Shown piece after piece: positions 631-62,860 of a DNA stretch of 64,000 bases. The stretch comes from Cyanidioschyzon merolae (taxonomy: Eukaryota). The translations under genes and the position numbers were made by a program. The notes below the pieces were generated by a model, which was not told the DNA's origin, did not search any database, and worked only from the letters and a program-made list of their open reading frames with translations. Each line of letters begins with the position of its first letter. Position 1 is the stretch's first letter. The stretch lies in the NCBI GenBank assembly GCA_000091205.1, contig AP006491.2; one strand, written 5' to 3'.

Positions 631-1110
631 ATGAGTTCGGAACAAGCTCCAACCAAGGGGCAGCTTGCTCCTGTCATCAGGGCTACAGACCATAACGGAA
701 CGTTGGTGGACACCGAGTCTGTGCGAGGTCAACGGCCCGTCGTGGTGTTCTTCTTTCCGCGAGCGTTCACCGTGGGCTGTACCCGAGAAGCGTGCGCGTT
801 CCGTGACTCTTATTCGGCTTTCGAAACTCTGAACGCAATGGTGGTAGGCGTATCAGCTGATTCCCCACAGGTTCTGCGGGAGTTCGCGCAGCAACATAAA
901 CTTCCGTTCCACCTTGTTTCGGATACCGACGGGAGCCTGCGCAAACTCTTCCAAGTGCCCAGATCCCTGTTCGGTCTTCTTTCTGGGCGGGTTACCTATG
1001 TCATCGGACGGAGCGGCCGCATTCTGGATATATTTAATAGTCAGCTCAGTTGGACCGAACACGTAAACGTGGCGAAGAAGGCTATCGCTGCAGAGGAGGC
1101 CGCTACATGA
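631..1110 (+). CDS. Peroxiredoxin Q / bacterioferritin comigratory protein (AhpC/TSA thioredoxin-fold peroxidase)
   Basis: 159-aa ORF. Motif FFFPRAFTVGCTREACAFRD matches the BCP/PrxQ peroxidatic-Cys signature (F-x-P-x-D-F-T-x-x-C-T-x-E-x-C-x-F-R-D). The resolving Cys is 5 residues downstream. Confidence 0.8.
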   Translation: MSSEQAPTKGQLAPVIRATDHNGTLVDTESVRGQRPVVVFFFPRAFTVGCTREACAFRDSYSAFETLNAMVVGVSADSPQVLREFAQQHKLPFHLVSDTDGSLRKLFQVPRSLFGLLSGRVTYVIGRSGRILDIFNSQLSWTEHVNVAKKAIAAEEAAT

Positions 1111-2049
1111 CAAGTCGAGCGCCTCCAGAGCCTCGTCTGCTGGCGGCAGCTCGAACGCCAGCGGTGTTGAAAACGTCGCTCGCCAGTGATCGCGAAAAAT
1201 GCCGTCATGTGCACGCGTGCCGGCAGTTGGTTTCCCTGAAAGCAACTGCCCAGGTGTGCCTCGGTTGGTACGTACGGTGACGTAAAGCAGGGCGTGGCCC
1301 GCTGTGAAAAGTTTTCGTAGTTGAGCTCCAAGTTCCAGCATATTTTGAAGATCGAGTCGCTGCATCGCTGTCTCTGTGGTATATGATGCGCGCGCTGCGG
1401 TCAACTCCGAATAACGTCCGACGGACACCGTCCAGCAAGTCTGCAACGACGAGCGGGAACCCAGATACCCATGCATGCGGGATACCGACTCGCTCACAGA
1501 AGCTTGGCGACAGCCGCGCTGCGCGTGGGACGTCATGCGGCAGAAGCAGCAGCGTATCGATATCGAAAAGCTGTGCCTGTGAAGCCCAGTACTCAACCTC
1601 AAGAGACGTGCGCTGACAGCGAAAACCTTTCTCTCGGACTCGCCGATAACCGATGAATGACTCGTACGCATCATCATCGATGCATCGATTATCGACACAA
1701 ACGGTATCGAATGAAGAGCGCCTGGTCGCTGCAACGCTGGCAACTGCTCGGGTTTCGATTCATGCTGCGGAGGCTGTGCACCTGCCGCCAACGAACGGTA
1801 ACACTGCACTCGTGCGAGGCAACCTCGCCATGCTGCTGCCCGAGTTGAAACCCCTGCTCATGAACCTCAGGCGAGTGTCTCGCCGCGGATCTCGTGCCGC
1901 GGCAGTCGGGTGTGCGCATGCTTCTATGTATGTCTCTGTTTTTGTCAATGGTTACCCGTTCGTGTTGCCAGCGTCGTTGTAAAAACACCTCGACTGTGCA
2001 CGTACGGTCGTCGTCGACCGATCCAAACCACAAGACGCTAGCTGCCGAG

Positions 2050-4419
2050 TCAACGATTCTCGGCAGGTCCTTGACGCCGCATGTGGCGCTCGTAGTAGAA
2101 TTGCGCAAAGGTAGGCAGCACTCGAGAGGAGACCACGGATGAAAGCGAACCTCCAGGTTCCGGATGCGTACACGACGCACCCGATGCCTGGCGGAAGACC
2201 AGCGTTAGCTCATTTAGGAGCGTTTCGTAGCGGTAGCGAACACGAATAGATGGAACATTGGACTTGTGGATATCGTTCCCCTGGTCATTGGTGAGAAACC
2301 AGCGCGGTCCGAGCCAGTGCGCCTTCACACAGGGCTCGAAACCGCTCTGTAGCGCAGAGTTTCGCGCCAGTTCACAGAGATCCGAACTGCTCAGTTTCCA
2401 TATCTGAGCGGCTACCGAGTACTCTTCCATGAGCGGCTCGCGAGAGAAATGGAACATAAGTGGATCATCGGTGCTGAGGCTCACATTCAGCCCGCGTGCA
2501 ATAAACACTGGTACCGGTGACTTGGTGTAATCGACGAATAGCAGGTTATTGCCCAGCGGAGAGACAGCGAGACCCACTTGGCACAGGTAGTAGAGGTACT
2601 GCAGCACGGGTGCTTTTTTCAAGTTAATCCCGTGATTAATACCGTGCGCGAGGAGAAACGTCACTGCCAGGTGATCGATTTCGCCGGCTTCACCAGCATG
2701 TGGGCGGAATCGAAAGGTATGCAGGCCTCGATGCTCGCGAAACCTGTTCAAAACCCATAAATTAGCGTAGATGTAGTAGGTGAAGTATGCATAGGGCATC
2801 GGTGCTGAGGTACGCCACGCTAGCGGCGGTGGCAAGGTCAACAAGTCGATGCGTGGCTGCGGTACACTCTCGTCGTCAACGGTGTCGAAGCCTACAATCT
2901 GTTGCAGAACTGTGTGCAGCTCCGGATGCGTTGATGGATCTTGCGTGACCTCAAATAGCGGGAAGAAAATATTGTTCAACATTTCCTGAAAGGATTCCAG
3001 CAACCCTGCTTCGTGGTAGGCGCCGAACAAACGCGGAATCTGGATCAACCATCGGGCGTGATCCGAGTAGATTCGATGCTTGGTGAACCAGCGAGCAAGA
3101 CGATCCCACTCGCATCGTTTTTTGCCGTATATCGAGATTCGGGGCTCGATATGGGAGTACTTGCTCTCTACAAGATCATCGAGGACCTCGCGGGTGATTT
3201 CCGCCAGAAATCGGCCTTCGATAAAGTTGTCCGTTTTCAGAAACACTTCCCGAAGACGAGATTCTCCCAGCGGGGAATACTTGTTATTGAAGCGGTCAAA
3301 GCGCTGCACGGTACGCTTATCCGCGTGCACGTCGAGCGTGTCCACCGACAGCTCATACGCCGTGATGCCGAGGGAGTCGAACACCCCGGCCAGCGTCAGA
3401 ACGCGGCCATCGCGCTCAATCACTGGGGTGTTCGGCTCGGTCTTGAGTTTCTTCTTAATAAATCGGAGCAGGTGCTTCTGGTTCATACAGGAGCTGTGAT
3501 GAATATGCGTGTCAACCTTGCGGACATTATAAAAGTCTCGATGCGGCACTGTCATCTGCTCTAGCCGCTCTGCTTCATCGTTGAGTAGCAGATGCATTTG
3601 AAAGCGCAGAGAGAGTAGTTGCAGACGCCTGTAGCAGAACGAGCGGGAGTCGGGATCGTTCATGATCCCGATCAGCGTGTTCAGATCGTGCACGAAAAGC
3701 GCATAGGAGCCAGGAACAACGAACTTGCACGGTTCGCGGCTTGTCTCGGTTGCCGGTCTTGTGACCTCCATGATGCCATCACGAACTTCGAACGCGTAAT
3801 CGCCCTTCGCCAGGGCTGGCCCTCGAAAAGGATCATACGGTGGCGGGACGTGGATACTCAGGTCACAGTCGCGGTACGGAGGTGCCGGGTTCGCATACTC
3901 TGGGACTTCAGGTAGGTAGAGGTATTTCTCGCGGAGGGCGATAGCGTTTCGGAGCAGTGCACATACCCTGCGCTCGTCGGCGTTTAACTCGACCTCGTTC
4001 GTGATGAGTACTCGCTGAAAACCTCGCTCTGTAACCGCAGATCGGAGTGAGCGGAAGGCTTGCCCAAGTTCTCGCCGGAGTTCAAGCGTCTGTAACGCAG
4101 TCAGGGTCGCCTCGTCTACCGAGGCCGTGTTGTGCACGAGTTGGGTTCCGTCGCTACGGTCACCTGAAGTGGAGGCTTCTTGCGCTCGCAGAGGATCGGT
4201 AACAGGAACCAGCAGCGCGTCCCGTGCCCTCTCGTCGGAGCGCTCACCAGCTGCCACCGACGATTGAACTAGACGACGCCAGTGAGGAGACAGGGCGCGC
4301 TGTGCAAGAACCGGTTCGGCATCCTCCTGTTCAAGGTCATGAATCCAAACGAGCTTGCCACTATCTCTACCAAATGGTTCCATGAGCGTGCACGTGCTCC
4401 AGTTCCCCGACACCGTCAC
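2050..4419 (-). CDS. AMP deaminase
   Basis: 789-aa ORF. The C-terminal catalytic region contains SLSTDDPLMFHFSREPLMEEYSVAAQIWKLSS, the AMP-deaminase signature SLSTDDPLQFHFT, plus the HxH metal-binding region (VDTHIHHSSCMNQKHL). The true start may be the downstream Met at 4383. Confidence 0.9.
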   Translation of the reverse strand: MTVSGNWSTCTLMEPFGRDSGKLVWIHDLEQEDAEPVLAQRALSPHWRRLVQSSVAAGERSDERARDALLVPVTDPLRAQEASTSGDRSDGTQLVHNTASVDEATLTALQTLELRRELGQAFRSLRSAVTERGFQRVLITNEVELNADERRVCALLRNAIALREKYLYLPEVPEYANPAPPYRDCDLSIHVPPPYDPFRGPALAKGDYAFEVRDGIMEVTRPATETSREPCKFVVPGSYALFVHDLNTLIGIMNDPDSRSFCYRRLQLLSLRFQMHLLLNDEAERLEQMTVPHRDFYNVRKVDTHIHHSSCMNQKHLLRFIKKKLKTEPNTPVIERDGRVLTLAGVFDSLGITAYELSVDTLDVHADKRTVQRFDRFNNKYSPLGESRLREVFLKTDNFIEGRFLAEITREVLDDLVESKYSHIEPRISIYGKKRCEWDRLARWFTKHRIYSDHARWLIQIPRLFGAYHEAGLLESFQEMLNNIFFPLFEVTQDPSTHPELHTVLQQIVGFDTVDDESVPQPRIDLLTLPPPLAWRTSAPMPYAYFTYYIYANLWVLNRFREHRGLHTFRFRPHAGEAGEIDHLAVTFLLAHGINHGINLKKAPVLQYLYYLCQVGLAVSPLGNNLLFVDYTKSPVPVFIARGLNVSLSTDDPLMFHFSREPLMEEYSVAAQIWKLSSSDLCELARNSALQSGFEPCVKAHWLGPRWFLTNDQGNDIHKSNVPSIRVRYRYETLLNELTLVFRQASGASCTHPEPGGSLSSVVSSRVLPTFAQFYYERHMRRQGPAENR

Positions 4420-5263
4420 ACAACAAACGCCGGTCTAAAGTCGAATGTCGCCTGCACTGTACAGTACCGGCGAGAAATTCGCCCCGGACAAGACGTCTCC
4501 AAATTATTCGCGGACGCCTCCCCGTGGTTCTCGACCGGCCACCTACTACTGCTTCCAACTTTTGCTCATATAATTCCACTTTGAGAGGTTGCCCCACAAA
4601 ATTCTCTCTTGTCCACTCTGGAGGTCTAGTCTGCAGCACTACACATGTCCTTATATTGAGAGCTGCATTAAAGTCTCGGTTCACAAACTCCATGCGTTTC
4701 TTACCGTTGGTTGTTATGCTAACCAATGCAAGGAGTCCTCGAACTTGTGCCCTCCTTTCCATCTGCTCTTCCGTCAGCTGTCCGTACTTTTTTATATCCT
4801 CAGGGCTCCTCTGGCACTTTTCCATCTCGACCCTTTGAAGTGTGCACCCCAGTTCATGATGTGTATACGATGTCCGGAACTCATCTATGGGTATCGTAAC
4901 GAAACGTTGTGCGCACTCCTTGTACGTTCGTGTCGTTGGAGCTGGCGTAGTCCTTTTTTGGGTCTTCCAGCGCCCTGCTCTGTATGCTTCTACCAGCCTC
5001 TGACTTTCATCCTCCTTCAAAGCGTTCAACTGATTGAAAACGTTCGCGAACGCGCGCCGCTTCCCACAATACAGATTCATACGCAGACTAGCCCACCGGG
5101 GCTTTGTATACTCCTCCCACAGTGCATCCCAATGCGCAACGCGAGCTTCCATGAATTTCCGGAAAGCTTCAAAGTCCGCTCCGCGGACCGTCACCTCGCT
5201 CAAAGCTTCCAGGTGCTCCTTCACCCCTGCATTCCATCTCTCAACTTTCTTCCTTGCATTCAC
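4367..5263 (-). pseudogene. C-terminal half of the TnpB/Fanzor-like protein (Zn-ribbon-like and RuvC-III regions)
   Basis: 298-aa ORF. It contains ...LVEAYRAGRW...IPIDEFRTS..C...C...VNRDFNAALNIRTC...NFVGQPLKVELYEQKL...GGRSRTTG. Its 3' end overlaps the first codons of the AMP deaminase ORF. Confidence 0.6.
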
Positions 5264-5413
5264 AATACCGGATTCTCGATAGCATCTCGATCTCGAGAAA
5301 TCTCAAAAGACGCATATCTTTCTGGCGCACGTTACCGTCAATGCCATCTTCCGCACGCTTCGGTTCAGCGACGGGTATGATATTCGTGTGTCCGGGGTCC
5401 GCGCCAATGACAA

Positions 5414-5530
5414 CGTCGTTATCCTCTACCTCCTGCGCGGCAGGACCCGGCTCCTTCTCATCTTCTTGTTTCGCCGCACCAACGATAACGTCGTTATCCT
5501 CTACCTCCTGCGTCGCAGGATCCGCCACCT
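5414..5530. repeat. Direct 75-bp duplication inside the Fanzor-like gene (encodes EVEDNDV-V/I-GA repeats)
   Basis: acgtcgttatcctctacctcctgcg occurs at 5414 and again at 5489. Confidence 0.6.
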
Positions 5531-7079
5531 TTTTTTCTTCATGCTTCGCCGAAGCGCAACTGAGGACGGAACTGGACGATCCACCTTCAAGCGCCGATAG
5601 TGTACGCACATGGCTACTCCATCGGTTTCGATCATCCCAGTGAGTACCTTTTGGTTGCTCGTCTAGACACGTATGAAATCGAAGGTATTCGTCCAATGCA
5701 ATTCCCGGTTTTCGCCCGTTAACTCCTTATCGCTGACATCGAACTCCGGACTGATCTTCTCCATGATGCTGTAAAGGACTCCGGAGTCGATTGAGACAGA
5801 GTGCGGCTTGATGTTGCACAACGGAACGACGTTGAAGCGCTTACCCATTAGGAAAGCCTTCCGTTCCTCCAACCCCGTCATTTCGTTTCCTGACTCAGCT
5901 TCATCTCCGCATTGCGTTCGAGTTCTCGGTTCAGGAGCATGAAATAGCGCAGGATGAGGGATACCATTTTTTTCATCTTTTTTCGTATATGATACGTTTT
6001 CTGCTGGATTTGACAAGCCCCATGACTGCACGGTGCTCTTGAATAGCCGCACGGATCAAAGTAGCTTCATACTTTCTCCCGCGTGATATCTTCTTGACGA
6101 CGAATTCGATCTCCTGTCCATTCTGGCGATCGCTCGTGATGCCATTGATGATGGTCCATATCCCCTGGCGGGAGAGGCCCAGGTACGTTGCAAAAACGGC
6201 GCATATCATGAAGCGTTTGAGTTTCATGGTCATACGATTCTTCAGGTTCGTGAGGTACTTGATCGTCCCGTATGAGTTAATATCTGCGACACTCTTGTAT
6301 AGAGTACCGTCGAAGCGGTATTCGGGGTGATTTTCGTGGACGGCATGCACTCTCTCATTTCTCCTCGACGCTTCCCCTGTGCCAAGCATCAGGTGGCGAA
6401 TAAAAGTCTTGTTGAAAAATTCTCTCGGAACCTCGAATGTTTTGATGTCCGTCATATCGCGATACATCTCCCTCGCCATATGCATCAGTTCAGAAGAAGT
6501 CTTTATAATTCTCAAGGAGTACGACTCGACACGGTTTCTGATGGCCTCTCGTAACTTTTTTTGTATGGATCCTTGGTATACTTTAGAAGACAGGCTTTCG
6601 CTACCATCTCATCTTACTGTCGCCTTCGTGCAGCTCCTTCATCTTCGCCTGCTCCTCTGGACTCGGCAATGTTTTTCGTTTTTCTCTGGCAGCTGGCGAC
6701 ACCGACCCTTCGAAATCCTCCACTTCCATATCAATGACTTGCTTATATTTTTTGGAAAAGAACGCACTATGAACGCTTCTGCTGGAAAGCGCGAAAACCC
6801 ACTGAGCACACTAAACTGAGGTTTGAAAAACGATCGGATTCAAAGACTATACTTTGCTATGACTTGAACGCGAATACATCTTGGACGCTATCGTAACACG
6901 CTGATGCCGCGATGCCATGCCGTTTTCGTGCATGCGACAAGTCCCCGGCAACAGTGCACGCTCCGAATGCCGCATCGCGTGTTTCCAGTCAAGTCTACGA
7001 ATAAGAAGGATGGCGCTTCCATTCGACGGCTACATGCGCTTCTTGTCTCATTTTTTGTCTGACAAACCGTTTACATTTA

Positions 7080-7760
7080 CCATGGATCCTAGATTGCGGG
7101 ATGGGTATTGGCTTTCGGGAAAGTGTCCATCATGCTGTACCCTACGTCAAATGTCTATGACCTGTTCTCGGATATACTGGTTATTTCGCACATTCTGTTG
7201 TGCGCCGACTACCTGCTCCGAGCGCCGCCCCCTGCAGCGCGCACACTGCTGGTACGGATGCAGTATGGAAGCAGCACGGCTTTGGGATGCCGCTGAGCGC
7301 GTCAGCTCGAAGCGCTGTTCACCTACAACGGGGTCGGAGTGCATAATCATTCTGGGAGCCTGCAAACCGCGCAGGTAGAGCTTCTGCGTGCGGCAATGCG
7401 ATGCGATATACTAGGAGTCCAGTGCAACCGGGGCGACGCCCAGACGCAGCCTACCTGCCCCTAGTCCCAGAGTGAATTGCGTTGCGGACGAGCTGCACAG
7501 ATGTCACTACAGCACCCGCCACTGCAGAGGAATACGGAGCAAAAACTCCGGTGGACTCGTCCAGCTCGCGGGATCTTCCGCCTAGAAAATAATCTTTTGA
7601 AAAAACGGAAAGTTTTCCCCCTTTCGAACGCTGACGATGCAGTTCGAACGAAATTGTTATCAAGTTGCTATTTCATGGTTGGTTTCTATCCCTTTTTCCA
7701 TAGCGCGGTCGATACCCGAACTTGGGATCGCCTCGGCATGCGAACGGTGGCATCGGGAAC
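7080..7760. repeat. Dispersed repeat family 2, copy 1 (~0.7 kb, non-coding)
   Basis: Blocks shared with 15595-16290: ccatgga(t/c)c..agattg(c/t)g(g/a)gatgggtatt, ctcggatatactggt, atcattctgggagcctgcaaa, gcga(c/t)gcccagacgca, agtcccaga(g/a)t..a.tgcgttgcgg, cgcgggatcttcc, g(c/t)gcggtcgata. Roughly 75-80% identity. Confidence 0.7.
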
Positions 7761-8825
7761 CGCTGGCCTGTGTAGACATTTTGTCAAATAAAAAACACAA
7801 ACGCTCCCTGGATCCTTCGAAATCCAATTCCCGATACAAATACTTGTTCGACTGCGGTGCATTGCAGTACTTGCTTGCAAGGAGCATTCGTTACTTTCCG
7901 AGACGCTTCCAGTAACCGCGCGACCGGTGATTCTGGTAAGGTGCATCGGGTGCTGACCCTGAATACCCGGACCCCCGCGCGAATGGCCAGGTGCTGGCAG
8001 CTCGACGTCCGCCGCTCCGAATGGCGGAGCTCTCACAGGCACTGGACAAGCGTCTGCGTTTAGGATACGGTCTGGGGGAATCGCCTGCCTCGAGAGGCCT
8101 GGAAGATGGACTCTACCATGTCAGCTGGACCCGCCAAGTCTCTTCGCTGCCCTTGTACGACCAAAGCGATTGATGTTCTGCCTAGCGAAGACGTGCTTAC
8201 AACCTAAAGTTTGTGTGTCGCTTCCCAGCGTTATCAACCTCAGTCTATATGAGGTGTTGATACAACTGTCTGCTTTTCTTCCCCATTATCTCCGAATTGA
8301 ACTATGTCGATCTCTCCGTTCCATCAAGTTCCGCTCTTAGCAGTCGACGTATGTTATAGGCAGCGTTCAAGTTCCGATTTAGCTGCTTCCGGCTGTTGCG
8401 CACGAATATCATTCCCATACGCTAGTTCCGAAACCTCGGCTTGAACGCTGCCATCAACAGAAACCGACTGCTTCAACCGGAGCTGCAAGGACAGGCCAAG
8501 GCATTGTGTTCAAAGCCGGATTTAACAGAGAAGGAAAAGAGGCAGCCGCAGGAAAATCTTTCAAACGCTTGTGCCAAGAAAGACGTCTGGCGCAACCGCA
8601 TGCAGTTCTCGTGAGTGCACTCGCCGATCGCTCAGTGGATCCGTTCCACTTTGATACTGGCATGGGTGCATTGAAATAAAATGAGACAATGCACACCTAG
8701 CAGCTGCAATCGCGATCGCCAGTCGATGCCCTGGTGAACGCCGTCGTGAGCAGGTCTCGCGAATACTGTATGTAATTGGAACATATGGACATGAGCATAC
8801 CCGAGAGGCTGCGCTCCCGTCGGGT

Positions 8826-11651: not shown

Positions 11652-12639
11652 GAACATTGTCAGGTCCGGTGTAAACGTCCGTTTTCTTCAAAAGGTACGC
11701 CCGGAGGGAGCGTTTTACGAACCCTGTGGCTCTGGTCGTCATGACGCCCATGCTCTGCTCAGCATCGTTGACGCATTCGCAGTTTGGGGAGCACGCTGTA
11801 CGGTGCTGGAACGGGTACCCGTGTTACCGCAGCTTGAGTGCTTGCTCGGTACGTCGAGCGCTCGCGCAACACCACAGCAACACACTCTGCATCTTCGATG
11901 AAAAATGTTGCAGCTTGTTTCCCTCATAGGACTTTCTGGAGGAATCTCTGGTGATGTTCACGCATCTTCTGTGACGAACAAGCAGGGAATTCGCAGCACC
12001 TGCATCCGAGCGTCTGCTGCATGTATGCTGGTGCTCGCACAGCGACGGCAACAGTGTCGGTGCGTCTCGGGCCGATGCCCCCAGTGGTACGGCAGAGTCG
12101 TTCTGTCTTCGTGCTGCTTCTGCACCGGCGCTAGCGGTACTATTGTGGATGCTTCTGGAAGACTCGGCGGGTCATGGAACATGGTTAGTGACCAGATTCT
12201 CCGTGGGGAAATATTGGGCAGTTCAATTTGGAGCTCGGATGTATATCGACAGATGCTTTTCCAATCGCTGATATCAAGCAAGCCGTCGGGGATCCCTAGT
12301 CAGTACACACGTTCGATCAAAGGAAACGTGAACGGCATCACTGCTGTGCATCCAAGTCGCGTGCGCCCGCGATCAGCAGCGCACATCTGCCTTCCTTTCA
12401 GTACTATACGCAAGGCATTGTTTCATGCCAGAGGATGCGCTCAGATTCATCATGGAGAGGATCTACATGTACAGTTGCAGTCAACTACGCAGCGCTCGGG
12501 TTCTACTGACGACTGACCAGCCTGCTGGCTCGCATGCAGTCGACATGTCGTGGCCCGTACCGCACCGTGCGGTCATTGGTGCGTCCCCGGGGCGATGCCC
12601 GCTGGCGCCATCGCATCCTGCCCCGGCTCCCGGAACCCA

Positions 12640-15301: not shown

Positions 15302-15594
15302 GTCGAACGCGAGTTCAGGTCACTCCCTGAAGTGGGCAGTATACAGAACTCCAAAAATACCGGCCACTGTGGTTGCACGCGGTTACGCTACTCCCGCTCC
15401 ACTCTACTACCAAAGCGCAAAGCCAACTACTCTTCAGTCTTGACTTGCTTCTCAAGTAACGTCAGTGCACCGTGCCTTGCGCTTGTCCAGGGAACGTACC
15501 AAGCTCTCGCAGAAGTGTATCGCCCGTTGGGCTCGTGGCAGGAGCGCGCACGCGCACACGGCATCGATGTTTTTCCGATGACCAAATTCGTGTC

Positions 15595-16290
15595 CATGGA
15601 CCAGGGATCCCAGATTGTGAGATGGGTATTCGTAATTGAAAAAGCGTCCATGATGATGCACTTTACCTTCAAGTTCCATTCCTTGGCCTTCAGCTCGGAT
15701 ATACTGGTCGTTTTGTAGGTTATATTGTGTGTCAAGTGCATGCCTTGGAGCATCCACAACAGAGCCGAAACCGCTGGAGCAGATATTTCATAGAGGCAGG
15801 ACCGGATTTGCCACACCATTGACTACTTCGACTCGGGGCTTGGATCATCCGACACAGGGTCGGTATACACGATCATTCTGGGAGCCTGCAAATTTCGCAG
15901 ACAGACCTACTGTGTCCGACTGCGCGAAGCGATATACTACAAGTCCACTGCGACCAGGGCGATGCCCAGACGCAACATCGGCGCTCCGAGTCCCAGAATA
16001 CACTGCGTTGCGGCCGAGTTGGTCAGATCTCACTAACGCAACAGCCACAGGAGAGAGCACGAAGCACCAGCCCGGCAGACTTGTCCGGTTCGCGGGATCT
16101 TCCACCTCTAAGGTAAAGTTTCGACAAAAAGGAAACCATTTCCCCTTCTTCATGTTTGCCGTAGAGGGGCAAAGAACTCGTTCTATCGTTGCTCGTTCGT
16201 GGATAGTTTCTGATCTTTTTTCTGTGCAGTGCGGTCGATATGCGCACCTGGGAGATCTAGCACGCTCGAGGCACGACGCGCATCGACAAG
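15595..16290. repeat. Dispersed repeat family 2, copy 2
   Basis: Homologous to 7080-7760 (see that feature). It lies immediately upstream of the NDUFA13 start. Confidence 0.7.
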
Positions 16291-28329: not shown

Positions 28330-28460
28330 TGGTTGCCGGTGGACCTTGACGGTGGGATGAGATATGATTGACGCTTTCCCGAAACTCAACACCCACCCGT
28401 CTCGCAAGCTGGGATCCATGGTCCATGGAAACGTTTTTTCATCGGAAAAAGCATCACAAG
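28330..28460. repeat. Dispersed repeat family 2, partial inverted copy
   Basis: The reverse complement ...ccatggaccatggatcccagcttgcgagacgggtgggtgttgagtttcgggaaagcgtcaatcat... matches the 5' ~100 bp of the 7080 and 15595 copies (ccatggatcctagattgcgggatgggtattggctttcgggaaagtgtccatcatg). Confidence 0.5.
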
Positions 28461-37555: not shown

Positions 37556-39415
37556 GTCTACAATGGAGCGCTGACCAGCTCGCTCTGGTCCTTCATCTCG
37601 ATATTTCTCCGAACTCGTTTTAGATGTGTCGCAGCGGGATTCAATGTGCAGCAGGAAAAGAGAATGCGTCGATGCGCGGTTTTAGGATTCCCGGTCGGTT
37701 CCTCGGGGTATGATCCCTCGACGCTTTGCCGCTGGGATTTGTGATCGCCATTCGAATCAAGACCATCCAAGACCGCGCTGAACAGCGGTCCGTAAAACAA
37801 CCGATGCCATCATCCAACTCATGTGTACAAGCCTCTGCTCTTCTCCTTTTCTGACGCGTAGCAGGCTCAAATCACCCATTCTACAAATTATCGATCTTTC
37901 TACATGAGCGCAGCAACACTCACAAGAAGAAAAGCTCAACATCGACCCGTGACGACTTGCTCTCAAGCACACTCCGAAACTTCAACGAAGTCGTCAGGTC
38001 AAACTAGAACCCACTCCGTTCGTACGATCCACCCCTCCCTCTTTGTGGCTATCGACGCGTCGACACTCGACAGCAGCAGCACGGAATCGCTCACGGGATG
38101 CGCTTCCGGGCGCTCCCGTCTCTTCAGTTTGTAAGGAAGGGGGCCCTTGGACTCGGAATTCAGTCCTCGCATCGATCGCCTCCGATGGAGGGTGCGTCAC
38201 CATTTCGCACAAAGAGACCGTTCGCTTGTCAAAGTGTCTCGGCTTGCTCTCCCGCCTGGATCTTCCGTTCAGTGCTTGTTCCATCACGGACCAGATCGCA
38301 ATCAGCATATCCGCTTCTGTTCGGAACACAGCAGAGAGTTTAAACAGGTCGTCGTATACACCCAACTTGTTTCGTATGCTGCAACTCGATTGAGAATGTC
38401 TCCGCAGCAGTGAGGAACGGGTTCAGGGAAGCAAATGCTCGTTTCGATCTCTCGACTTGTCCTCGACACGCACTGGTGCCCGACGCTCTTGGTGCCGAGA
38501 CTGCGGCCACCGGCTCGGCGGCGGTCCACAGAAATCTCCAGCTCAGGTGCCGGAAAGTTTCCAACCGCCCTCATAAACCAAGGCCACCTACATAGCGCCG
38601 TCGAGCGCTTCATGAGGCGCGTCCTGCGAGCTTCATGCCTGTTGTTCCCTCCGTTCACCGGCCCCAAACAGTAGGGACTGGTGTGTAAGAGGCCTGCGGA
38701 CGTCGATGGAGGCCAGCGCCGACCTGGCAGCCGCGGAGGACATCGAACTGGTAGCGAGTGTGGAAGAGGTGCCGCAACGAGTACGAGAGGCGCCTCGGAT
38801 CGTCGGAGCTCGTGGCGTTGGTCTCGACCTCGCAGCGACGGACGACGTATCTAAAAGATGGTCGGAACGTGGTGTCTGTCCTTGTTGCGCCTTGTGCGAT
38901 CTATCTACTAGAGCATACACCGAGAGCAGGCATGGATGCCCCGAGATGCCCATCGATGAGCCGAGCACGTTGTCCGCGCATCAGGGCCACGGATGCACGC
39001 TGAAACCGAGAGAGAAGAAGAGCGTGAACCAGAGCCGCATGCACGAGATGGTGAACGGTACGTTCATCGAATGTCAGATGAGGAGGCAATCGAAAGCGAG
39101 GTGCTATCTACGGAGTGCTTTTGAAAGCAGTCACGCGCGCAAGCACTTTCTGCGGCGACCCTTGAACGCCTTGATCGACATCCGGAACGGTCTCGTGCTT
39201 CGGGGGCGCGTAGCGGGTCTGTTTCGAGTGAAGCTTCCATGGAAACGTTTAGCACTTTTTTGGACATTGTGCTGAATGTCTGAGGCGTTTCGATTGAGAA
39301 AATCAGTGTCCAGGAGTGAGGACATTGGACTCTCGACGGAAGCAGGGCACTGGTATCATCCAGGCAGCATTCTCGAATGGCTGGTGCGGCGTCTATATTT
39401 AGATACAACGAGAAC
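37556..39415 (+). repeat. Dispersed repeat family 1, copy A (~1.86 kb, non-coding)
   Basis: Over 95% identical to 50795-52695 and to the inverted 59421-61176. It starts at ...aatggagcgctgaccagctcgctctggtcc and ends at ...ctatatttagatacaacgagaac. Embedded ORFs are short and low-complexity on both strands. Confidence 0.85.
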
Positions 39416-47249: not shown

Positions 47250-47392
47250 AGTAAAGGCTGAGAAATTCGGACAAGTGAACGGCCTCTTTGTGCGAAATGG
47301 TGACACACCCTCCATCGGAGGCGATCGATGCGAGGACTGAATTCCGAGTCCAAGGACCCCCTTCCTTACAAACTGAAGAGACGGGAGCGCCC
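47250..47392 (-). repeat. Fragment (~130 bp) of dispersed repeat family 1
   Basis: gacaagtgaacggcctctttgtgcgaaatggtgacacaccctccatcggaggcgatcgatgcgaggactgaattccgagtccaaggacccccttccttacaaactgaagagacgggagcgccc is nearly identical to 60630-60760 of copy C, and is inverted relative to copies A and B. Confidence 0.8.
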
Positions 47393-48608
47393 TCTTGAAT
47401 ATTCTATAACAGGTATCCTGCTGTGGTCGCATGCTGTTTCTTCGAAAGCCGTAAAGAGAGGATAATTTTTCTTGCGAACGGGATTGATTATTACGTAGCC
47501 GAATAAGTTCAATGAGTATTCGGCATGCGCTTCTATACTATCTGTCACGGGACGAGGTCGGGGTTTATCTCCGTCACTCCAGCGTTGCGAGTTGCTGAAC
47601 ACACGAGTTGCCCTCGTATAGAAAGAACGAAGACTCGGAGAAAGTGTGATTTAAAAATTCTGCACGGAAGCAAAGGGGAAGAGTGGAGGCCTCTTCAAGT
47701 TAGATTGGATAATGATTTTTGTTTATCACAAACTCTTATCTAAGGGCGTCGCGAATCATCTTGAAGCAGCTGAAGCTACGTATTTCATCAGCAAAGCGTC
47801 GAAGGAGCGATTCCCGAAAAAACGACAGCAAAATCCTGAAACCATGTAGAAACCTGTAAGTCATTATGCTTGGACGTCGGATTTCGAGATTTACGTCTAA
47901 AACAGTTCGGAAAAAACTAAATTCCAGAAATATCGCGACCAGTTCAGTTTTCCATTTTCTTCTGTTTCAGCTGCAGGGCGTACTACCTTGGAGTCTGGCG
48001 ATGATGGTCGCTGTACCATGCAAACAACGCACTCCCGTATGGGATTACCTGTACGGATATCCCGTGCGCTCGACACCATACAATTGCGTGAAAGCGGCAC
48101 GTTGACCGTATACCATTTTCGTGTGTATCCTGCGGCGGCCCGCCTATCTTATGGTGTACGGGTAATGGACCTATCCAGAAAGCCACAGATGCGCCAAAGT
48201 TGCCCCTGTAACTGCCGAACTGTTTTCTGGTGTGCGGTCGATAAGCTGCTCTCGGATCCCCGGATGGATACAAGCTGCAGTTTTTCAGGTTAAAAGCGAC
48301 GACTTGCTTGAAAGAGGCATGTTTGCTTGGCTCAGTGGCTGTTCTGCAAAAGTGCCGGAAACACTGCTCCGAAGACACGCTGCACGCGTTGAACCTACCA
48401 AAGGGCGGCACAAACTCACCTGCGCTCGTGACCCTGACACAAAGCCCGTCTTTTTAGTTGCTTGCAGGTTTTGACAAGCATGCTAGTGTCGCTCTGTATC
48501 ACGTGTTGGTGGCCGCAAGGATCGTATCCCTCTCAAAGTAAAATCCATAGCCAAAGGTTAAAATCAGGAGAAACACGGGACGTTTATTCGTTCACGCTCG
48601 TCCATAGC

Positions 48609-50794: not shown

Positions 50795-52695
50795 GGTTAA
50801 AATGGAGCGCTGACCAGCTCGCTCTGGTCCTTCATCTCGATATTTCTCCGAACTTTTTTTAGATGTGTCGCAGCGGGATTCAATGTGCAGCAGGAAAAGA
50901 GAATGCGTCGATGCGCGGTTTTAGGATTCCCGGTCGGTTCTTCGGGGTATGATCCCTCGACGCTTTGCCGCTGGGATTTGTGATCGCCATTCGAATCAAG
51001 ACCATCCAAGACCGCGCTGAACAGCGGTCCGTAAAACAACCGATGCCATCATCCAACTCATGTGTACAAGCCTCTGCTCTTCTCCTTTTCTGACGCGTAG
51101 CAGGCTCAAATCACCCATTCTACAAATTATCGATCTTTCTACATGAGCGCAGCTCGTGTGCGCTGCACCTCGCGCAGCAACACTCACAAGAAGAAAAGCT
51201 CGACATCGACCCGTGACGACTTGCTCTCAAGCACACTCCGAAACTTCAACGAAGTCCTCAGGTCAAATTGGAACCCACTCCGTTCGTACGACCCACCCTT
51301 CCCTCTTTGTGGCTAGCGACGCGTCGACACTCGACAGCAGCAGCACGACATCGCTCACGGGATGCGCTTCCGGGCGCTCCCGTCTCTTCAGTTTGTAAGG
51401 AAGGGGGCCCTTGGACTCGGAATTCAGTCCTCGCATCGATCGCCTCCGATGGAGGGTGCGTCACCATTTCGCACAAAGAGACCGTTCGCTTGTCAAAGTG
51501 TCTCGGCTTGCTCTCCCGCCTGGATCTTCCGTTCAGTGCTTGTTCCATCACGGACCAGATCGCAATCAGCATATCCGCTTCTGTTCGGAACACAGCAGAG
51601 AGTTTAAACAGGTCGTCGTATACACCCAACTTGTTTCGTATGCTGCAACTCGATTGAGAATGTCTCCGCAGCAGTGAGGAACGGGTTCAGGGAAGCAAAT
51701 GCTCGTTTCGATCTCTCGACTTGTCCTCGACACGCACTGGTGCCCGACGCTCTTGGTGCCGAGACTGCGGCCACCGGGCTCGGCGGCGGTCCACAGAAAT
51801 CTCCAGCTCAGGTGCCGGAAAGTTTCCAACCGCCCTCATAAACCAAGGCCACCTACATAGCGCCGTCGAGCGCTTCATGAGGCGCGTCCTGCGAGCTTCA
51901 TGCCTGTTGTTCCCTCCGTTCACCGGCCCCAAACAATAGGGACTGGTGTGTAGGAGGCCTGCGGACGTCGATGGAGGCCAGCGCCGACCTGGCAGCCGCG
52001 GAGGACATCGAACTGGTAGCGAGTGTGGAAGAGGTGCCGCAACGAGTACGAGAGGCGCCTCGGATCGTCGGAGCTCGTGGCGTTGGTCTCGACCTCGCAG
52101 CGACGGACGACGTATCTAAAAGATGGTCGGAACGTGGTGTCTGTCCTTGTTGCGCCTTGTGCGATCTATCTACTAGAGCATACACCGAGAGCAGGCATGG
52201 ATGCCCCGAGATGCCCATCGATGAGCCGAGCACGTTGTCCACGCACCAGGGGCACGGATGCACGCTGAAACCGAGAGAGAAGAAGAGCGTGAACCAGAGC
52301 CGCATGCACGAGATGGTGAACGGTACGTTCATCGAATGTCAGATGAGGAGGCAATCGAAAGCGAGGTGCTTTCTACGGAGTGCTTCTGAAAGCAGTCACG
52401 GGCGCAAGCACTTTCTGCGGCGACCCTTGAACGCCTCGATCGACATCCGGAACTGTCTCGTGCTTCGGGGGCGCGTAGCGGGTCTGTTTCGAGTGAAGCT
52501 TCCGTGGAAACGGTTAGCACTTGTTTGAACATTGTGCTGAATGTCTGAGGCGTTTCGATTGAGAAAATCAGTGTCCAGGAGTGAGGACATTGGACTCTCG
52601 ACGGAAGCAAGGCACTGGTATCATCCAGGCAGCATTCTCGAATGGCTGGTGCGGCGTCTATATTTAGATACAACGAGAACGTTTCCCCTGTGCAA
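50795..52695 (+). repeat. Dispersed repeat family 1, copy B (~1.9 kb)
   Basis: Collinear with copy A. It carries a 24-bp insertion at about 51145 (shared with copy C) and extends 15 bp further at the 3' end (gtttcccctgtgcaa). Confidence 0.85.
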
Positions 52696-53004
52696 TTGGT
52701 GTGCTATAAAGGTGCTCCACCCTCCGATACTACTAAGCATCCGATTGAGGAAGGTACCTTGCATGATAAACAATCTGATGCGATACGAGGCCGCCCGGTT
52801 GCACAGCGTATGCTCAGCGATCCGAGGGGAAGACCATTCCGCGCAGCTGGGACTTGTGCATATCTGGGATGCAGAAATGCTTATTTTCCTAATTTCCCGG
52901 GGAACATGTGAATCTGGAGTACCAGGTAGGCTCAGGGATACGATCCGCCATTTACGGCTCCCGTACGAAACGCTCACAGCTCGCCCGCTCATAGCAAGTA
53001 CGAC

Positions 53005-55748: not shown

Positions 55749-56523
55749 AAAATAAACCTTAGGTATGCCGCTCGAAACGCAAAGGCGCTGCGGAACAGCA
55801 CATATTGAACGGGAACGATGGCAGCGTTCGCAAGTTCTGTCGCGATATGTATCTAACTACATAGTTCTGATCTGAAATGGCTGCTTTGAAAGACGGCCAA
55901 TCGCGAAACGCCTCAGCTGAGACATCGACCGAATGCTACCGTACAAGTCTGTTTTCTTAGTGATCGCTCCGAAGGGCAGCACTTCCCGAAACAACTCTGC
56001 AGAGACATCGAGCCGAGATCTGCAGATGTTCTCGCAACAAGGTTTTGCCTTGAGGTCATGCACGCAAGGTCGCCGGTTTCAGCGCTCGGCAGTGCACGAG
56101 AGGCTTTGCTCCAGCAATAGAATAGATCAGTCCGAACCCAATGTTTTGGCAAGGATGTGAGCCATGCAACAACGCGCGCGTATCCGGAAAGAGTCTAGCG
56201 GGGGAAGGGGGTTCATAATCGTTCCCCCATTCGACCGAGCGCTCTATACTCGTCCATGGGGAAGGCTCAACTATGCTACACGTCTTGCTATACAGCAGGG
56301 CGCTCGGATAAGCCGTTAGATTCCTCGAAGCTGCATTTAAAAGTTAAGCTTGCTGATTGCGGCGCTTGGGCTCGACATGCGTCGCCTTTGCACGCTCCGG
56401 GCCACCTCAATGAAACAGTTATACTAGACTGGGTGCCTATTTGCGAGGCGTTTGACGCATGGCTCGCGAGATGAACCTACCTGACCACAAATTTATCATC
56501 TATTCAGTACAACGAAAAACGTT

Positions 56524-57108
56524 TCACGACCATGGAGGATAAGCTAACACCCACTCGGTGACGCATCCCAGCTTTTTTTGACCGGCCGCCTGCGATCGAT
56601 TTCCGTTTCTCTTTGTATACTTCGAGCTTGAAAGGCTGCCCACGAAGTTACATCGCGTATGCTTCTTGTGTCTCGTTGTAAGTTTAACACATCGTCTGAT
56701 ATTGATAGCAGCGTTAAAGTCTCCATTCACGAGATCCATGAGTTTACTGCCGCTGGTTGAACTCACCAATGAGAGGATTCCTTCAACTCGTGCCCTCTGT
56801 GCCACTTCTATCTCGTCATCGCTCCTTTGGACAAACAACTTTGCTCGCCTATCTCCGCTCTTCTTCTTCTCCTTCATCATTTGCTCTTCTTCGTTCCATG
56901 GCAGGCAAGAAGAGGATTTTTGCATCGTTTGCCTGCAGCCGGCGTTAACGGCGCTCCAGGATCCTCGGCTTCGGTATCCATAATTTTTCCTTGAATTTTT
57001 TATTTTTGAAAACAACCGCACTTCGAATGCATCTGCTATGAACCGCAAAAAGGCATTTGATGACACGTCCCTTGGGATGGAACCCAACTGGGGTGCAAGA
57101 CCGCACAC
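56524..57108 (-). pseudogene. TnpB/Fanzor-like 3' gene fragment (copy 2), 5'-truncated and frameshifted
   Basis: ...AGC-x10-C...DDEIEVAQRARVEGILSLVSSTSGSKLMDLVNGDFNAAINIRRCVKLTTRHKKHTRCNFVG aligns with copy 1 (…EEQMERRAQVRGLLALVSITTNGKKRMEFVNRDFNAALNIRTCVVLQTRPPEWTRENFVGQ). A 1-bp deletion after NFVG breaks the conserved C-terminus (…VEVYxEKL…GGRSK). Confidence 0.6.
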
Positions 57109-59325: not shown

Positions 59326-59420
59326 TCGGTAATTTTCGGTAGAGTTTTAAAGGGTTCCGGGAGTATGGTATATTTATACTCAGTGATATCAAATAATATA
59401 CCACCATTCTCGTTCCCCAG

Positions 59421-61176
59421 TTGCACAGGGGAAACGTTCTCATTGTATCTAAATATAGACGCCGCACCAGCCATTCGAGAATGCTGCCTGGATGATACCA
59501 GTGCCTTGCTTCCGTCGAGAGTCCAATGTCCTCACTCCTGGACACTGATTTTCTCAATCGAAACGCCTCAGACATTCAGCACAATGTTCAAACAAGTGCT
59601 AACCGTTTCCACGGAAGCTTCACTCGAAACAGACCCGCTACGCGCCCCCGAAGCACGAGACAGTTCCGGATGTCGATCGAGGCGTTCAAGGGTCGCCGCA
59701 GAAAGTGCTTGCGCCCGTGACTGCTTTCAGAAGCACTCCGTAGAAAGCACCTCGCTTTCGATTGCCTCCTCATCTGACATTCGATGAACGTACCGTTCAC
59801 CATCTCGTGCATGCGGCTCTGGTTCACGCTCTTCTTCTCTCTCGGTTTCAGCGTGCATCCGTGCCCCTGGTGCGTGGACAACGTGCTCGGCTCATCGATG
59901 GGCATCTCGGGGCATCCATGCCTGCTCTCGGTGTATGCTCTAGTAGATAGATCGCACAAGGCGCAACAAGGACAGACACCACGTTCCGACCATCTTTTAG
60001 ATACGTCGTCCGTCGCTGCGAGGTCGAGACCAACGCCACGAGCTCCGACGATCCGAGGCGCCTCTCGTACTCGTTGCGGCACCTCTTCCACACTCGCTAC
60101 CAGTTCGATGTCCTCCGCGGCTGCCAGGTCGGCGCTGGCCTCCATCGACGTCCGCAGGCCTCCTACACACCAGTCCCTATTGTTTGGGGCCGGTGAACGG
60201 AGGGAACAACAGGCATGAAGCTCGCAGGACGCGCCTCATGAAGCGCTCGACGGCGCTATGTAGGTGGCCTTGGTTTATGAGGGCGGTTGGAAACTTTCCG
60301 GCACCTGAGCTGGAGATTTCTGTGGACCGCCGCCGAGCCGGTGGCCGCAGTCTCGGCACCAAGAGCGTCGGGCACCAGTGCGTGTCGAGGACAAGTCGAG
60401 AGATCGAAACGAGCATTTGCTTCCCTGAACCCGTTCCTCACTGCTGCGGAGACATTCTCAATCGAGTTGCAGCATACGAAACAAGTTGGGTGTATACGAC
60501 GACCTGTTTAAACTCTCTGCTGTGTTCCGAACAGAAGCGGATATGCTGATTGCGATCTGGTCCGTGATGGAACAAGCACTGAACGGAAGATCCAGGCGGG
60601 AGAGCAAGCCGAGACACTTTGACAAGCGAACGGTCTCTTTGTGCGAAATGGTGACGCACCCTCCATCGGAGGCGATCGATGCGAGGACTGAATTCCGAGT
60701 CCAAGGGCCCCCTTCCTTACAAACTGAAGAGACGGGAGCGCCCGGAAGCGCATCCCGTGAGCGATGTCGTGCTGCTGCTGTCGAGTGTCGACGCGTCGAT
60801 AGCCACCAAGAGGGAGGGGTGGATCGTACGAACGGAGTGGGTTCTAGTTTGACCTGACGACTTCGTTGAAGTTTCGGAGGGTGCTTGAGAGCAAGTCGTC
60901 ACGGGTCGATGTCGAGCTTTTCTTCTTGTGAGTGTTGCTGCGCGAGGTGCAGCGCACACGAGCTGCGCTCATGTAGAAAGATCGATAATTTGTAGAATGG
61001 GTGATTTGAGCCTGCTACGCGTCAGAAAAGGAGAAGAGCAGAGGCTTGTACACATGAGTTGGATGATGGCATCGGTTGTTTTACGGACCGCTGTTCAGCG
61101 CGGTCTTGGATGGTCTTGATTCGAATGGCGATCACAAATCCCAGCGGCAAAGCGTCGAGGGATCATACCCCGAAGA
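59421..61176 (-). repeat. Dispersed repeat family 1, copy C (inverted, about 125 bp truncated at the element 5' end)
   Basis: Reverse complement of copy B from the 3' terminus (ttgcacaggggaaac = rc of gtttcccctgtgcaa) to the position corresponding to B about 50945. The encoded short ORFs are identical to those in A and B. Confidence 0.85.
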
Positions 61177-62294: not shown

Positions 62295-62860
62295 CTAATA
62301 TTTCTTGCGCAAGGTTGTGCAGGAACAAGACGTAAAAGATTGATCAACGATTCGCTGCCATGGAGCGTAAATATACGCCCACATGCAGACGCCTCCCAGC
62401 CTTTTCGACCGGCCCGCTGGTATCGGTTTCAGCTTCTCCCTGTATACTTCGACCCCGGGAGTTTGCCCCACGAAGTTAGATCGCGTCAGCTGCTTGGGTC
62501 TCGTTTTCAGCACAACATATCGTGTAATATTGGCAGCAGCGTTGAAGTTTCCGGCCACGAACTGCATGCGTTTTTTTGTCGCTTGTTGAACGCATCATTC
62601 CAAGGATTCCTAGCACTCGTGCCCTCTGTGCCACTAAAGTCTCGTTCTCGCGTCGTTGGCCAAACACCATTTCTCACCAGTTGCCCCTCTTCTTCTTCAC
62701 TCTCTCTTCTTTGCTCCATGGTTAGCGATAAGAGGATTTTTCAGTTTTTTCCCGGCACCTTACGATGGCGGCCATCCAGGATCCCCGACTTTCGTATCCA
62801 TGACTTTCCCTTAGATTTTTTATGTTTGGAAATGAACGCACTTTTTCACCCTTAGATGAG
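62295..62860 (-). pseudogene. TnpB/Fanzor-like 3' gene fragment (copy 3), degenerate and frameshifted
   Basis: …NFNAAANITRYVVLKTRPKQLTRSNFVGQTPGVEVYREKLKPIPAGRSKRLGG aligns with copies 1 and 2. The catalytic Asp is replaced (N-F-N-A-A). Upstream frames (…LVAQRARVLGILGMMRSTSDKK…) match copy 2 but are out of frame. DNA-level similarity to copy 2 extends over 62330-62855 and ends at the same point (about 62855 versus about 57040). Confidence 0.55.

Follow-up and report, generated by a model that had tools for sequence, protein, structure and literature searches.

Identification of the CMe-1A Insertion

The 64,000-nt stretch of contig AP006491.2 analyzed here (at its whole length, the window) belongs to the nuclear genome of the intron-poor thermoacidophilic red alga Cyanidioschyzon merolae 10D. 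Positions 4426–6906 of its minus strand (copy A) very probably represent an old, inactivated insertion of CMe-1A, a repeat family of this alga that carries a gene for a protein assigned to Fanzor1, the RNA-guided nucleases that are eukaryotic homologues of TnpB. The biochemical nature of Fanzor1 proteins has been established since 2023.

According to the published description, C. merolae contains one Fanzor1 family, CMe-1A, with ~150 copies, each ~80% identical to a 3169-bp consensus; the family has no terminal inverted repeats, its target-site duplications were not determinable, and the 5' 635 bp of the consensus correspond to a separate repeat, TE-N2_CMe (Bao & Jurka 2013, Mobile DNA 4:12, PMC3627910). 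Thus, copy A and its family are already known, the family, copy number, consensus DNA and protein having been published for C. merolae in 2013. The suggestion of an initial annotation, made from the sequence alone, that the locus may hold a lineage-specific variant worth describing was therefore anticipated by that work.

The CMe-1 protein (734 aa) and the CMe-1A consensus DNA were taken from the supplementary files of Bao & Jurka 2013 and aligned to the window. In the local alignment, consensus positions 731–3169 matched window positions 6906–4428 on the minus strand with 86% identity, the values for the element across all comparisons with CMe-1A being 83–86%, and tblastn analysis showed that the published protein covers the 4.4–6.7 kb copy over residues 1–734 in several frames. 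In addition, 80 related loci were fetched from hot-spring metagenomes for boundary and copy comparisons. Homology of copy A to these metagenome copies ends at 4420–4426 and ~6882, and one of the loci (L078, 99.2% identity) is the orthologous locus of copy A. The 4367–6515 interval proposed initially falls in the region of the element but is too short, since the ATG is at 6729, the element spans 4426/4428–6906 and a 5' module lies at 7060–7721. Copy A shares with the published CMe-1A the host species, the DNA sequence, the lack of terminal inverted repeats and the association with TE-N2_CMe. It differs from the consensus in three respects: the gene has become a pseudogene, the TE-N2 module has the inverted orientation, and the Fanzor unit begins at consensus position 731. 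As for the published 3' end, comparison with 56 copies shows that homology runs on by TT.

Three minus-strand open reading frames (ORFs) with a common C-terminal block had been reported in the initial annotation, and all three are present, namely at 4367–5263 (FVNRDFNAALNI...NFVGQPLKVELYEQKLEAVVGGRS), 56524–57108 (LVNGDFNAAINI...NFVGS...GNRS), and 62295–62567 (FVAGNFNAAANI...NFVGQTPGVEVYREKLKPIPAGRS). Their resemblance goes far beyond chance (tblastn E <= 5e-15); the CMe-1 protein matches the 56.5-kb fragment with E = 5e-15 and the 62.4-kb fragment with E = 1e-15. For the first ORF (298 codons), 204 homologous proteins with E < 1e-3 were found in hot-spring metagenomes and public assemblies; those among the matches listed are 54–92% identical to it and are mostly fragments.

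Assignment of the CMe-1 Family to Fanzor1

A profile built from the CMe family alone detected 1465 relatives at E < 1e-3 among 1.8 billion representatives. Many of these relatives are of full length (600–740 aa), including P0165 (E = 1e-108; 44% identity to the CMe family). A profile of 77 sequences matched three Fanzor1 proteins of solved structure, PpFz1 of Parasitella parasitica (E = 1.9e-20), SpuFz1 of Spizellomyces punctatus (E = 2.1e-12), and GtFz1 of Guillardia theta (E = 2.3e-6). The PF07282 model was matched individually by 16 of the 77 relatives.

The AlphaFold2 model of P0165 had a mean predicted local distance difference test score (pLDDT) of 89.1 and a predicted template modeling score (pTM) of 0.87. 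According to the Foldseek comparison of this model with PDB chains, the best seven matches were all Fanzor1 (E = 3.5e-17 to 2.3e-15), with template modeling (TM) scores of 0.53–0.73 (maximum values 0.63 for the query and 0.73 for the target). Next came Cas12o, Cas12f and ISDra2 TnpB at E = 1e-4 to 1e-2. Other traits of Fanzor1 were also found, namely the eukaryotic nuclear location, the multi-copy state (three copies in the window) and a basic N-terminal stretch, which reads ...KKRKT...KKQKREARRQR in the CMe-1 consensus.

The solved Fanzor1 structures (SpuFz1, 8GKH and 9CEU–9CEZ; GtFz1, 9CER–9CET; PpFz1, 9CF0–9CF3) have the same overall fold as the P0165 model and share with the CMe-1 clade the TDG and DPG motifs, the relocated Glu in (D/V)E(F/Y)xTS and the RD/N-x-NAA-x-N helix. 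However, sequence identity between them is only 12–15%, and in the CMe-1 clade the target-nucleic-acid-binding (TNB) insert is devoid of CxxC...CxxC zinc ligands. Bacterial TnpB (ISDra2, 8H1J) and Cas12f have the RuvC core and the RD-x-NAA helix in common with CMe-1, but their fold matches to P0165 are weak (E = 2.6e-4 to 8e-3). In contrast to CMe-1, they are much smaller, carry Glu at the canonical RuvC-II position and a C4 zinc finger, and occur together with TnpA or CRISPR arrays, of which copy A has neither.

Several results weigh against the assignment. Searches of the window ORFs, the repaired translation and the consensus with Pfam, the check recommended in the initial annotation, gave nothing significant, the best PF07282 value being E = 0.2–0.5, and Pfam scans of six window ORFs and eight long homologues also produced no significant match. 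The profile of the CMe family alone, whose members are ~75% identical, yielded noise only when compared with PDB; the link to PDB emerged only after relatives of 30–45% identity had joined the profile. Furthermore, the modeled structure is that of the 44%-identical relative P0165 and not of the window sequence. As for Pfam, a test based on it alone would wrongly reject the Fanzor call, since the clade has lost the zinc-ribbon cysteines on which the model relies. On the whole, the profile and fold comparisons show that the family belongs to Fanzor1, and the initial reading of the locus as Fanzor-type rather than bacterial IS605 agrees with the best profile and fold matches, with the C. merolae flanks and with the absence of a TnpA-like ORF.

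Distant relatives of the clade were also noted on giant-virus metagenome contigs of 37–79 kb (IMG/VR, loci L084–L088). They are 21–27% identical and, in two cases, nearly full length.

Catalytic Residues and Conserved Motifs

In the hidden Markov model (HMM) alignment to the SpuFz1 chain, which is an MBP fusion with a numbering offset of 394, chain residues 777, 935, and 1000 are matched in the family by the Asp of DPG, the Glu of DEFRT and the Asp of NRD. In native numbering these chain residues are D383/E541/D606, the named catalytic residues of SpuFz1 (Xu et al. 2024, PMC11423790). The respective columns of P0165 (D421, E592, and D658) show no variation among the 97, 97, and 95 relatives aligned there, and the triad of CMe-1 is D431/E603/D672. 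All three catalytic codons are retained in copy A (Table 1), the first within GADPGHTNII (5405–5376) and the second within IDEFRTS (4888–4868). In Fanzors and their TnpB ancestors the glutamate is shifted to beside the TS motif (PMC11832414; PMC11423790). The catalytic Glu, looked for in the initial annotation between RuvC-I and TS, is accordingly the E of IDEFRTS, i.e., in the rearranged Fanzor position, while the RuvC-III Asp had been placed correctly in NRDFNAA.

The VSIDSGV string, initially taken for RuvC-I, is indeed present at 5797–5777, but the RuvC-I Asp lies in GADPG at 5399–5397. VSIDSGV aligns with VRIDTIILY of SpuFz1 and MTVDSKIL of PpFz1, upstream of the TDG and DPG motifs, and its equivalent in the P0165 model is a short strand (residues 323–325) in the N-terminal half; its Asp was rejected as a RuvC-I residue on these grounds. 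The structural check proposed at the outset thus revealed, in P0165, the Fanzor1 fold and D/E/D columns matching SpuFz1, with the VSIDSGV Asp outside RuvC-I.

In the stretch from the catalytic Glu to the RuvC-III Asp, the 97 relatives do not share four conserved Cys/His columns; only a single Cys column (68/96) occurs there, along with two His columns that are partial. Since the ligands are absent in all aligned relatives, intact ones included, their absence is not a sign of decay. Judging from the alignment, the loss of zinc ligands is a trait of the whole CMe-1 subclade of Fanzor1. The TS..C-x9-C segment described initially does exist, as TSYTHHELGC-x9-C after IDEFRTS, but its missing cysteines, first attributed to degeneration, are missing clade-wide. 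A C4 zinc finger between TS and RD was listed as a Fanzor motif, and CMe-1 was nonetheless filed under Fanzor1 (Bao & Jurka 2013, PMC3627910). As for the third catalytic position, GtFz1 naturally has Asn there, and SpuFz1 D606N is more active than the wild type (PMC11423790). Therefore, the change of RD to GN in the 62.4-kb fragment, which was seen initially as a D-to-N substitution and counted as degeneration, would not be inactivating by itself.

Table 1. Features of the CMe-1A copies and the associated repeat module in the window.
Feature	Position	Strand	Remarks
Copy A, Fanzor-bearing CMe-1A unit	4426..6906	-	Consensus 731-3169 plus TT after the published end
Fanzor1 (CMe-1) pseudogene, 734 codons in consensus	4487..6729	-	ATG at 6729; consensus ORF = 906-3107
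Predicted RuvC-I catalytic Asp codon, D of GADPG, CMe-1 D431	5397..5399	-	Invariant 97/97; pairs with SpuFz1 D383
Predicted relocated RuvC-II catalytic Glu codon, E of IDEFRTS, CMe-1 E603	4880..4882	-	Invariant 97/97; aligns with SpuFz1 E541
Predicted RuvC-III catalytic Asp codon, D of NRDFNAALNI, CMe-1 D672	4673..4675	-	D in 95/95 relatives with a residue there; aligns with SpuFz1 D606
VSIDSGV, conserved Fanzor1 motif (HFITIDTSVLYG) N-terminal to RuvC domain	5777..5797	-	D in 96/96 relatives
75-bp tandem repeat of two units, encoding an acidic 25-residue unit directly before RuvC-I	5399..5551	-	Tandem Repeats Finder: period 75, 2.0 copies, 83% matches
Non-coding 3' tail, candidate right end and guide-proximal part of putative omega-RNA scaffold	4426..4486	-	CGCCACTACTGT kept
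Copy B, internally deleted mini-derivative	56518..57101	-	Consensus ~790-1070 joined to ~2766-3081; 71-73% identity
Copy C, same mini-derivative	62346..62844	-	Consensus ~868-1057 joined to ~2833-3088; RD changed to GN
TE-N2_CMe-like module	7060..7721	+	Consensus 4-665, 78% identity (blastn); inverted, head-to-head with the Fanzor unit

State of the Fanzor1 Gene in Copy A

The gene of copy A is a pseudogene, and the frame-interrupted coding at 4.4–6.5 kb noted at first sight was thereby confirmed. In comparison with the consensus, it contains nine frameshifting indels (near 6626, 6560, 6016, 5972, 5959, 5885, 5877, 5554, and 5301), two in-frame stops (codons 50 and 367) and an in-frame 27-bp deletion within the basic N-terminal stretch. 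Its stop codon is mutated from TAG to CGG, which is why the last ORF extends to 4367. With these lesions (the frameshifts, the two stops and the lost stop codon), copy A is unable to act as a source of the nuclease. The repaired translation, projected on the consensus frame, is 77.6% identical to CMe-1, which is consistent with the reported ~80% identity of genomic copies to the consensus. None of the ORFs of the element in the window is on record as a called protein.

Just upstream of RuvC-I, the acidic 75-bp unit (...KHEEKKEADPATQEVEDNDFVVG) occurs once in the consensus, twice in copy A, and about four or five times in P0004; variation of its number was noted across the proteins P0004, P0014, and P0018. 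The equivalent loop of the P0165 model has a pLDDT below 50.

Selection and Alternative Explanations

Among 24 full-length copies compared with the consensus, the ratio of nonsynonymous to synonymous differences (pN/pS) was 0.2–0.4 in the C-terminal 298 codons and 0.45–0.8 in the N-terminal 436. Disabling mutations numbered 0.83 per 100 codons in the C-terminal part versus 1.27 in the N-terminal part. This pattern indicates that much of the divergence between copies arose in lineages whose protein was under purifying selection. It supports the argument of Bao & Jurka 2013 (PMC3627910) that the protein matters for the element.

The same data bear on whether the 298-residue C-terminal ORF (4367–5263) was selected as a truncated, domesticated protein. 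In copy A itself, pN/pS is 0.26 in the C-terminal part and 0.78 in the N-terminal part, and of its 11 disabling events only a frameshift at ~aa 464, immediately before the open ORF, hits the C-terminal 298 codons (binomial p ~0.025), as domestication would predict. However, all 24 full-length copies show the same low pN/pS and fewer C-terminal disabling events, so the constraint belongs to active lineages and not to the locus; selection on the open C-terminal ORF at copy A is needless as an explanation and was rejected. Since this ORF, in addition, reaches 4367 only through the stop-codon mutation, contains no RuvC-I and is not an annotated protein, domestication is very improbable.

Even less credible is a live Fanzor system at copy A, consisting of a functional nuclease gene and an omega-RNA at 4250–4500. 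The three catalytic codons are all still there, the last 298 codons are open, and the folding of the last 133 nt is slightly better than that of shuffled sequences (z = -2.5). However, the nine frameshifts and two premature stops lie upstream of the open stretch, which does not contain the RuvC-I Asp and has lost its stop codon. Moreover, homology to the family ends at ~4426, the 4250–4425 segment being flank and part of the AMP deaminase gene, and no ORF of copy A is on record as a called protein.

That the sequences form a host gene family of another fold with a chance RD-x-NAA-x-NI-like string, as the absence of zinc-ribbon cysteines and the lack of significant Pfam matches, whether with the window ORFs, with the repaired protein or with the consensus, might suggest, is refuted by the profile matches to three solved Fanzor1 proteins across several hundred residues, the fold match with exactly coinciding catalytic columns, and the ~150 dispersed, decayed copies, and can practically be dismissed. 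An equally negligible reading is a bacterial IS200/IS605 or IS607 TnpB acquired by recent transfer or contamination: TnpB and Cas12f are among the weaker fold matches (e.g., 8h1j, E = 1.5e-3), but it is refuted by the match ranking, with Fanzor1 ahead by 12 orders of magnitude, and by the genomic context, in which the flanking genes, on an 810-kb chromosome, match C. merolae 10D proteins exactly and no TnpA-like ORF lies in or beside the element, while the basic N-terminal stretch and long REC region are typical of Fanzor1.

Copies B and C

The 56.5-kb and 62.4-kb fragments are two copies (B and C) of one internally deleted, non-coding mini-derivative. Copies B and C align collinearly through the deletion junction, at 72% over 508 bp, and their 3' tails are alike and unlike that of CMe-1A. 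The initial impression that all copies are decayed is thus borne out, copy A being a pseudogene (nine frameshifts, two stops, lost stop codon) and copies B and C being deletion derivatives.

The 3' End and the Putative Omega-RNA

The motif CGCCACTACTGT of the 3' tail is retained in >=90% of 55 copies. The termini of 56 copies read ...TTCGACTTTCGAACGGCG or ...TTTTTCTTTTGAAAGGCG, and both variants are able to fold into a terminal hairpin. After the published end, the first T is present in 49/56 copies and the second T in 53/56, and beyond them a G/T-rich bias of lesser strength (TTTGTTG, TTGGTGGTG) reaches ~+8; in the window this flank corresponds to 4407–4425. The TT and the G/T bias mean either that the element extends 2–8 nt further than recognised or that there is a target preference on the putative guide side.

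By analogy with the characterized Fanzors, it is reasonable to suppose that CMe-1A has an omega-RNA. Two hand-drawn structures in alternative registers pair in 74–78% of cells versus 37–66% after sliding, the value for the hairpins of the non-coding tail being 77.6% versus 41–51%, and the terminal 133 nt of copy A have a folding z of -2.5. The following results give no support to a conserved structured RNA: RNAalifold predicted 0 pairs on 55 aligned 3' ends, covariation of the hand-named helices was no higher than in shuffles in either register, the 3' tail diverges like third codon positions (0.19 vs 0.18–0.20) with no extra conservation, and Rfam gave no match on the whole window. The covariation that the initial annotation proposed to look for among the 3' ends was accordingly not seen in excess of shuffles in the 55 copies. 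An omega-RNA candidate reaching 4250, as envisaged initially, does not fit the boundary either: since homology ends at ~4426, positions 4425 and below are flank, and the scaffold is unable to extend that far.

Intact members of the family encode a 734-residue Fanzor1 protein, in which a basic N-terminal stretch resembling a nuclear localization signal is accompanied by REC and WED regions of helical character and by a RuvC nuclease domain. Its predicted active site is D431/E603/D672, with the Glu in the relocated Fanzor position, and its TNB insert has lost the zinc ligands. By comparison with SpuFz1, GtFz1, and PpFz1, the protein may bind an omega-RNA whose template would be the gene's 3' end together with the element's right end. 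The guide would continue into the flank, so that the complex may cut matching DNA beside a short motif, and this guided cleavage may help the element to persist.

The 5' Modules and Mobilization

In the consensus and most metagenome copies, TE-N2_CMe is located upstream of the gene in the same orientation (~15 metagenome loci are head-to-tail), while in copy A it is inverted (Table 1). The inverted arrangement was observed also at an independent locus (L058, 2311–3358), where the Fanzor unit begins at consensus 731–735. Upstream of consensus ~650, the related copies (loci L008–L065) differ: their 5' modules, each several hundred bp long, are of at least four unrelated types, TE-N2 among them, and every type meets the conserved core near ...ATCG|CGCTCGGTG.

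Elsewhere in the window, a solo TE-N2_CMe was noted at 15576–16284 on the plus strand (consensus 1–701, 79% identity), along with short fragments at 28364–28444 and 12066–12134. The solo copy reaches ~50 bp into consensus ~650–701, a segment common to all Fanzor copies whatever their 5' module.

According to the ORF list and Pfam scans of its ORFs, the element encodes no transposase, which weighs against the explanation adopted here. Specifically, no TnpA-like ORF (Y1 HUH or serine recombinase) was found in 4300–7800 or in the Pfam scans of element ORFs. No RepHel-like ORF is present in the element, and the 3' terminus in 56 copies is ...GAACGGCG/GAAAGGCG followed by TT and not CTRR; subterminal hairpin potential is the only feature common to Helitrons and CMe-1A. 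Helitron-borne Fanzor1 families of Chlamydomonas (CRe-1 to CRe-3) resemble CMe-1A as repeats without terminal inverted repeats or target-site duplications, with a hairpin-capable 3' end and with >100 copies per family against ~150 for CMe-1A (Bao & Jurka 2013, PMC3627910). CMe-1A differs from them in having no RepHel gene and a 3' end of ...GGCG(TT) instead of CTRR. The termini of CMe-1A fit neither the Helitron nor the IS200/IS605 definition; its classification was left open by Bao & Jurka 2013 (PMC3627910).

Host Locus and Other Repeats

Exact matches to C. merolae 10D proteins on an 810,151-bp record (BAM80007, BAM80017, BAM80018, and BAM80020) were obtained for four long ORFs of the window, which bears out the eukaryotic nature assigned to the neighboring genes at first inspection. 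The start codon of the AMP deaminase gene is at 4383, ~45 bp from the 3' end of copy A and on the same strand. Because the stop codon of copy A is lost, the Fanzor reading frame extends into the start of this gene. The AMP deaminase promoter must either lie inside copy A, or transcription must read through it. An empty site was searched for via contigs encoding an identical AMP deaminase; the sole contig found begins within the 3' end of copy A and therefore carries the same insertion.

A separate repeat of ~1.9 kb occurs three times with 97–99% identity, at 37559–39415 (+), 50798–52680 (+), and 59417–61176 (-), and has a partial copy at 47257–47714 (-). Each of the three contains an intact ATG-started ORF of 185–189 aa (38706–39275, 51971–52528, and 59588–60145), whose product is 32–34% identical to CMe-1 residues 561–694 and has RD replaced by RP (RRPLNASIDIRN); these ORFs are not on record as proteins. 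The repeat resembles a deletion derivative that was duplicated recently and stems from a second, more divergent family of Fanzor1-like type. Two of its copies form a 1.8-kb inverted repeat (50939–52740 and 59376–61176; 98–99% complementary) around 6.6 kb, in which mini-element B and three host genes lie, two of these genes encoding SSB and a DnaJ-domain protein. This geometry would allow inversion of the 6.6-kb segment.

Significance

Copy A is a real feature that was correctly interpreted in substance, is already known and is ordinary. Its value is one of calibration, since motif reading of raw sequence found the right superfamily and the wrong RuvC-I residue. Minor points that may be new are the mapped catalytic residues CMe-1 D431/E603/D672, the clade-wide loss of zinc ligands, and the signature of purifying selection in the divergence of the family.

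As for the family as a whole, it is possible, though as yet speculative, that the CMe-1 lineage is a large uncharacterised Fanzor1 subclade (1465 relatives at E < 1e-3, many of them intact at 600–700 aa) that has no TNB zinc finger and keeps the D-E-D triad invariant. Its intact members in thermoacidophilic Cyanidiales might then be active, heat-tolerant RNA-guided nucleases. They would perhaps use a short scaffold around CGCCACTACTGT and the terminal hairpin, and perhaps be mobilized in a 3'-end-dependent manner with interchangeable 5' modules.

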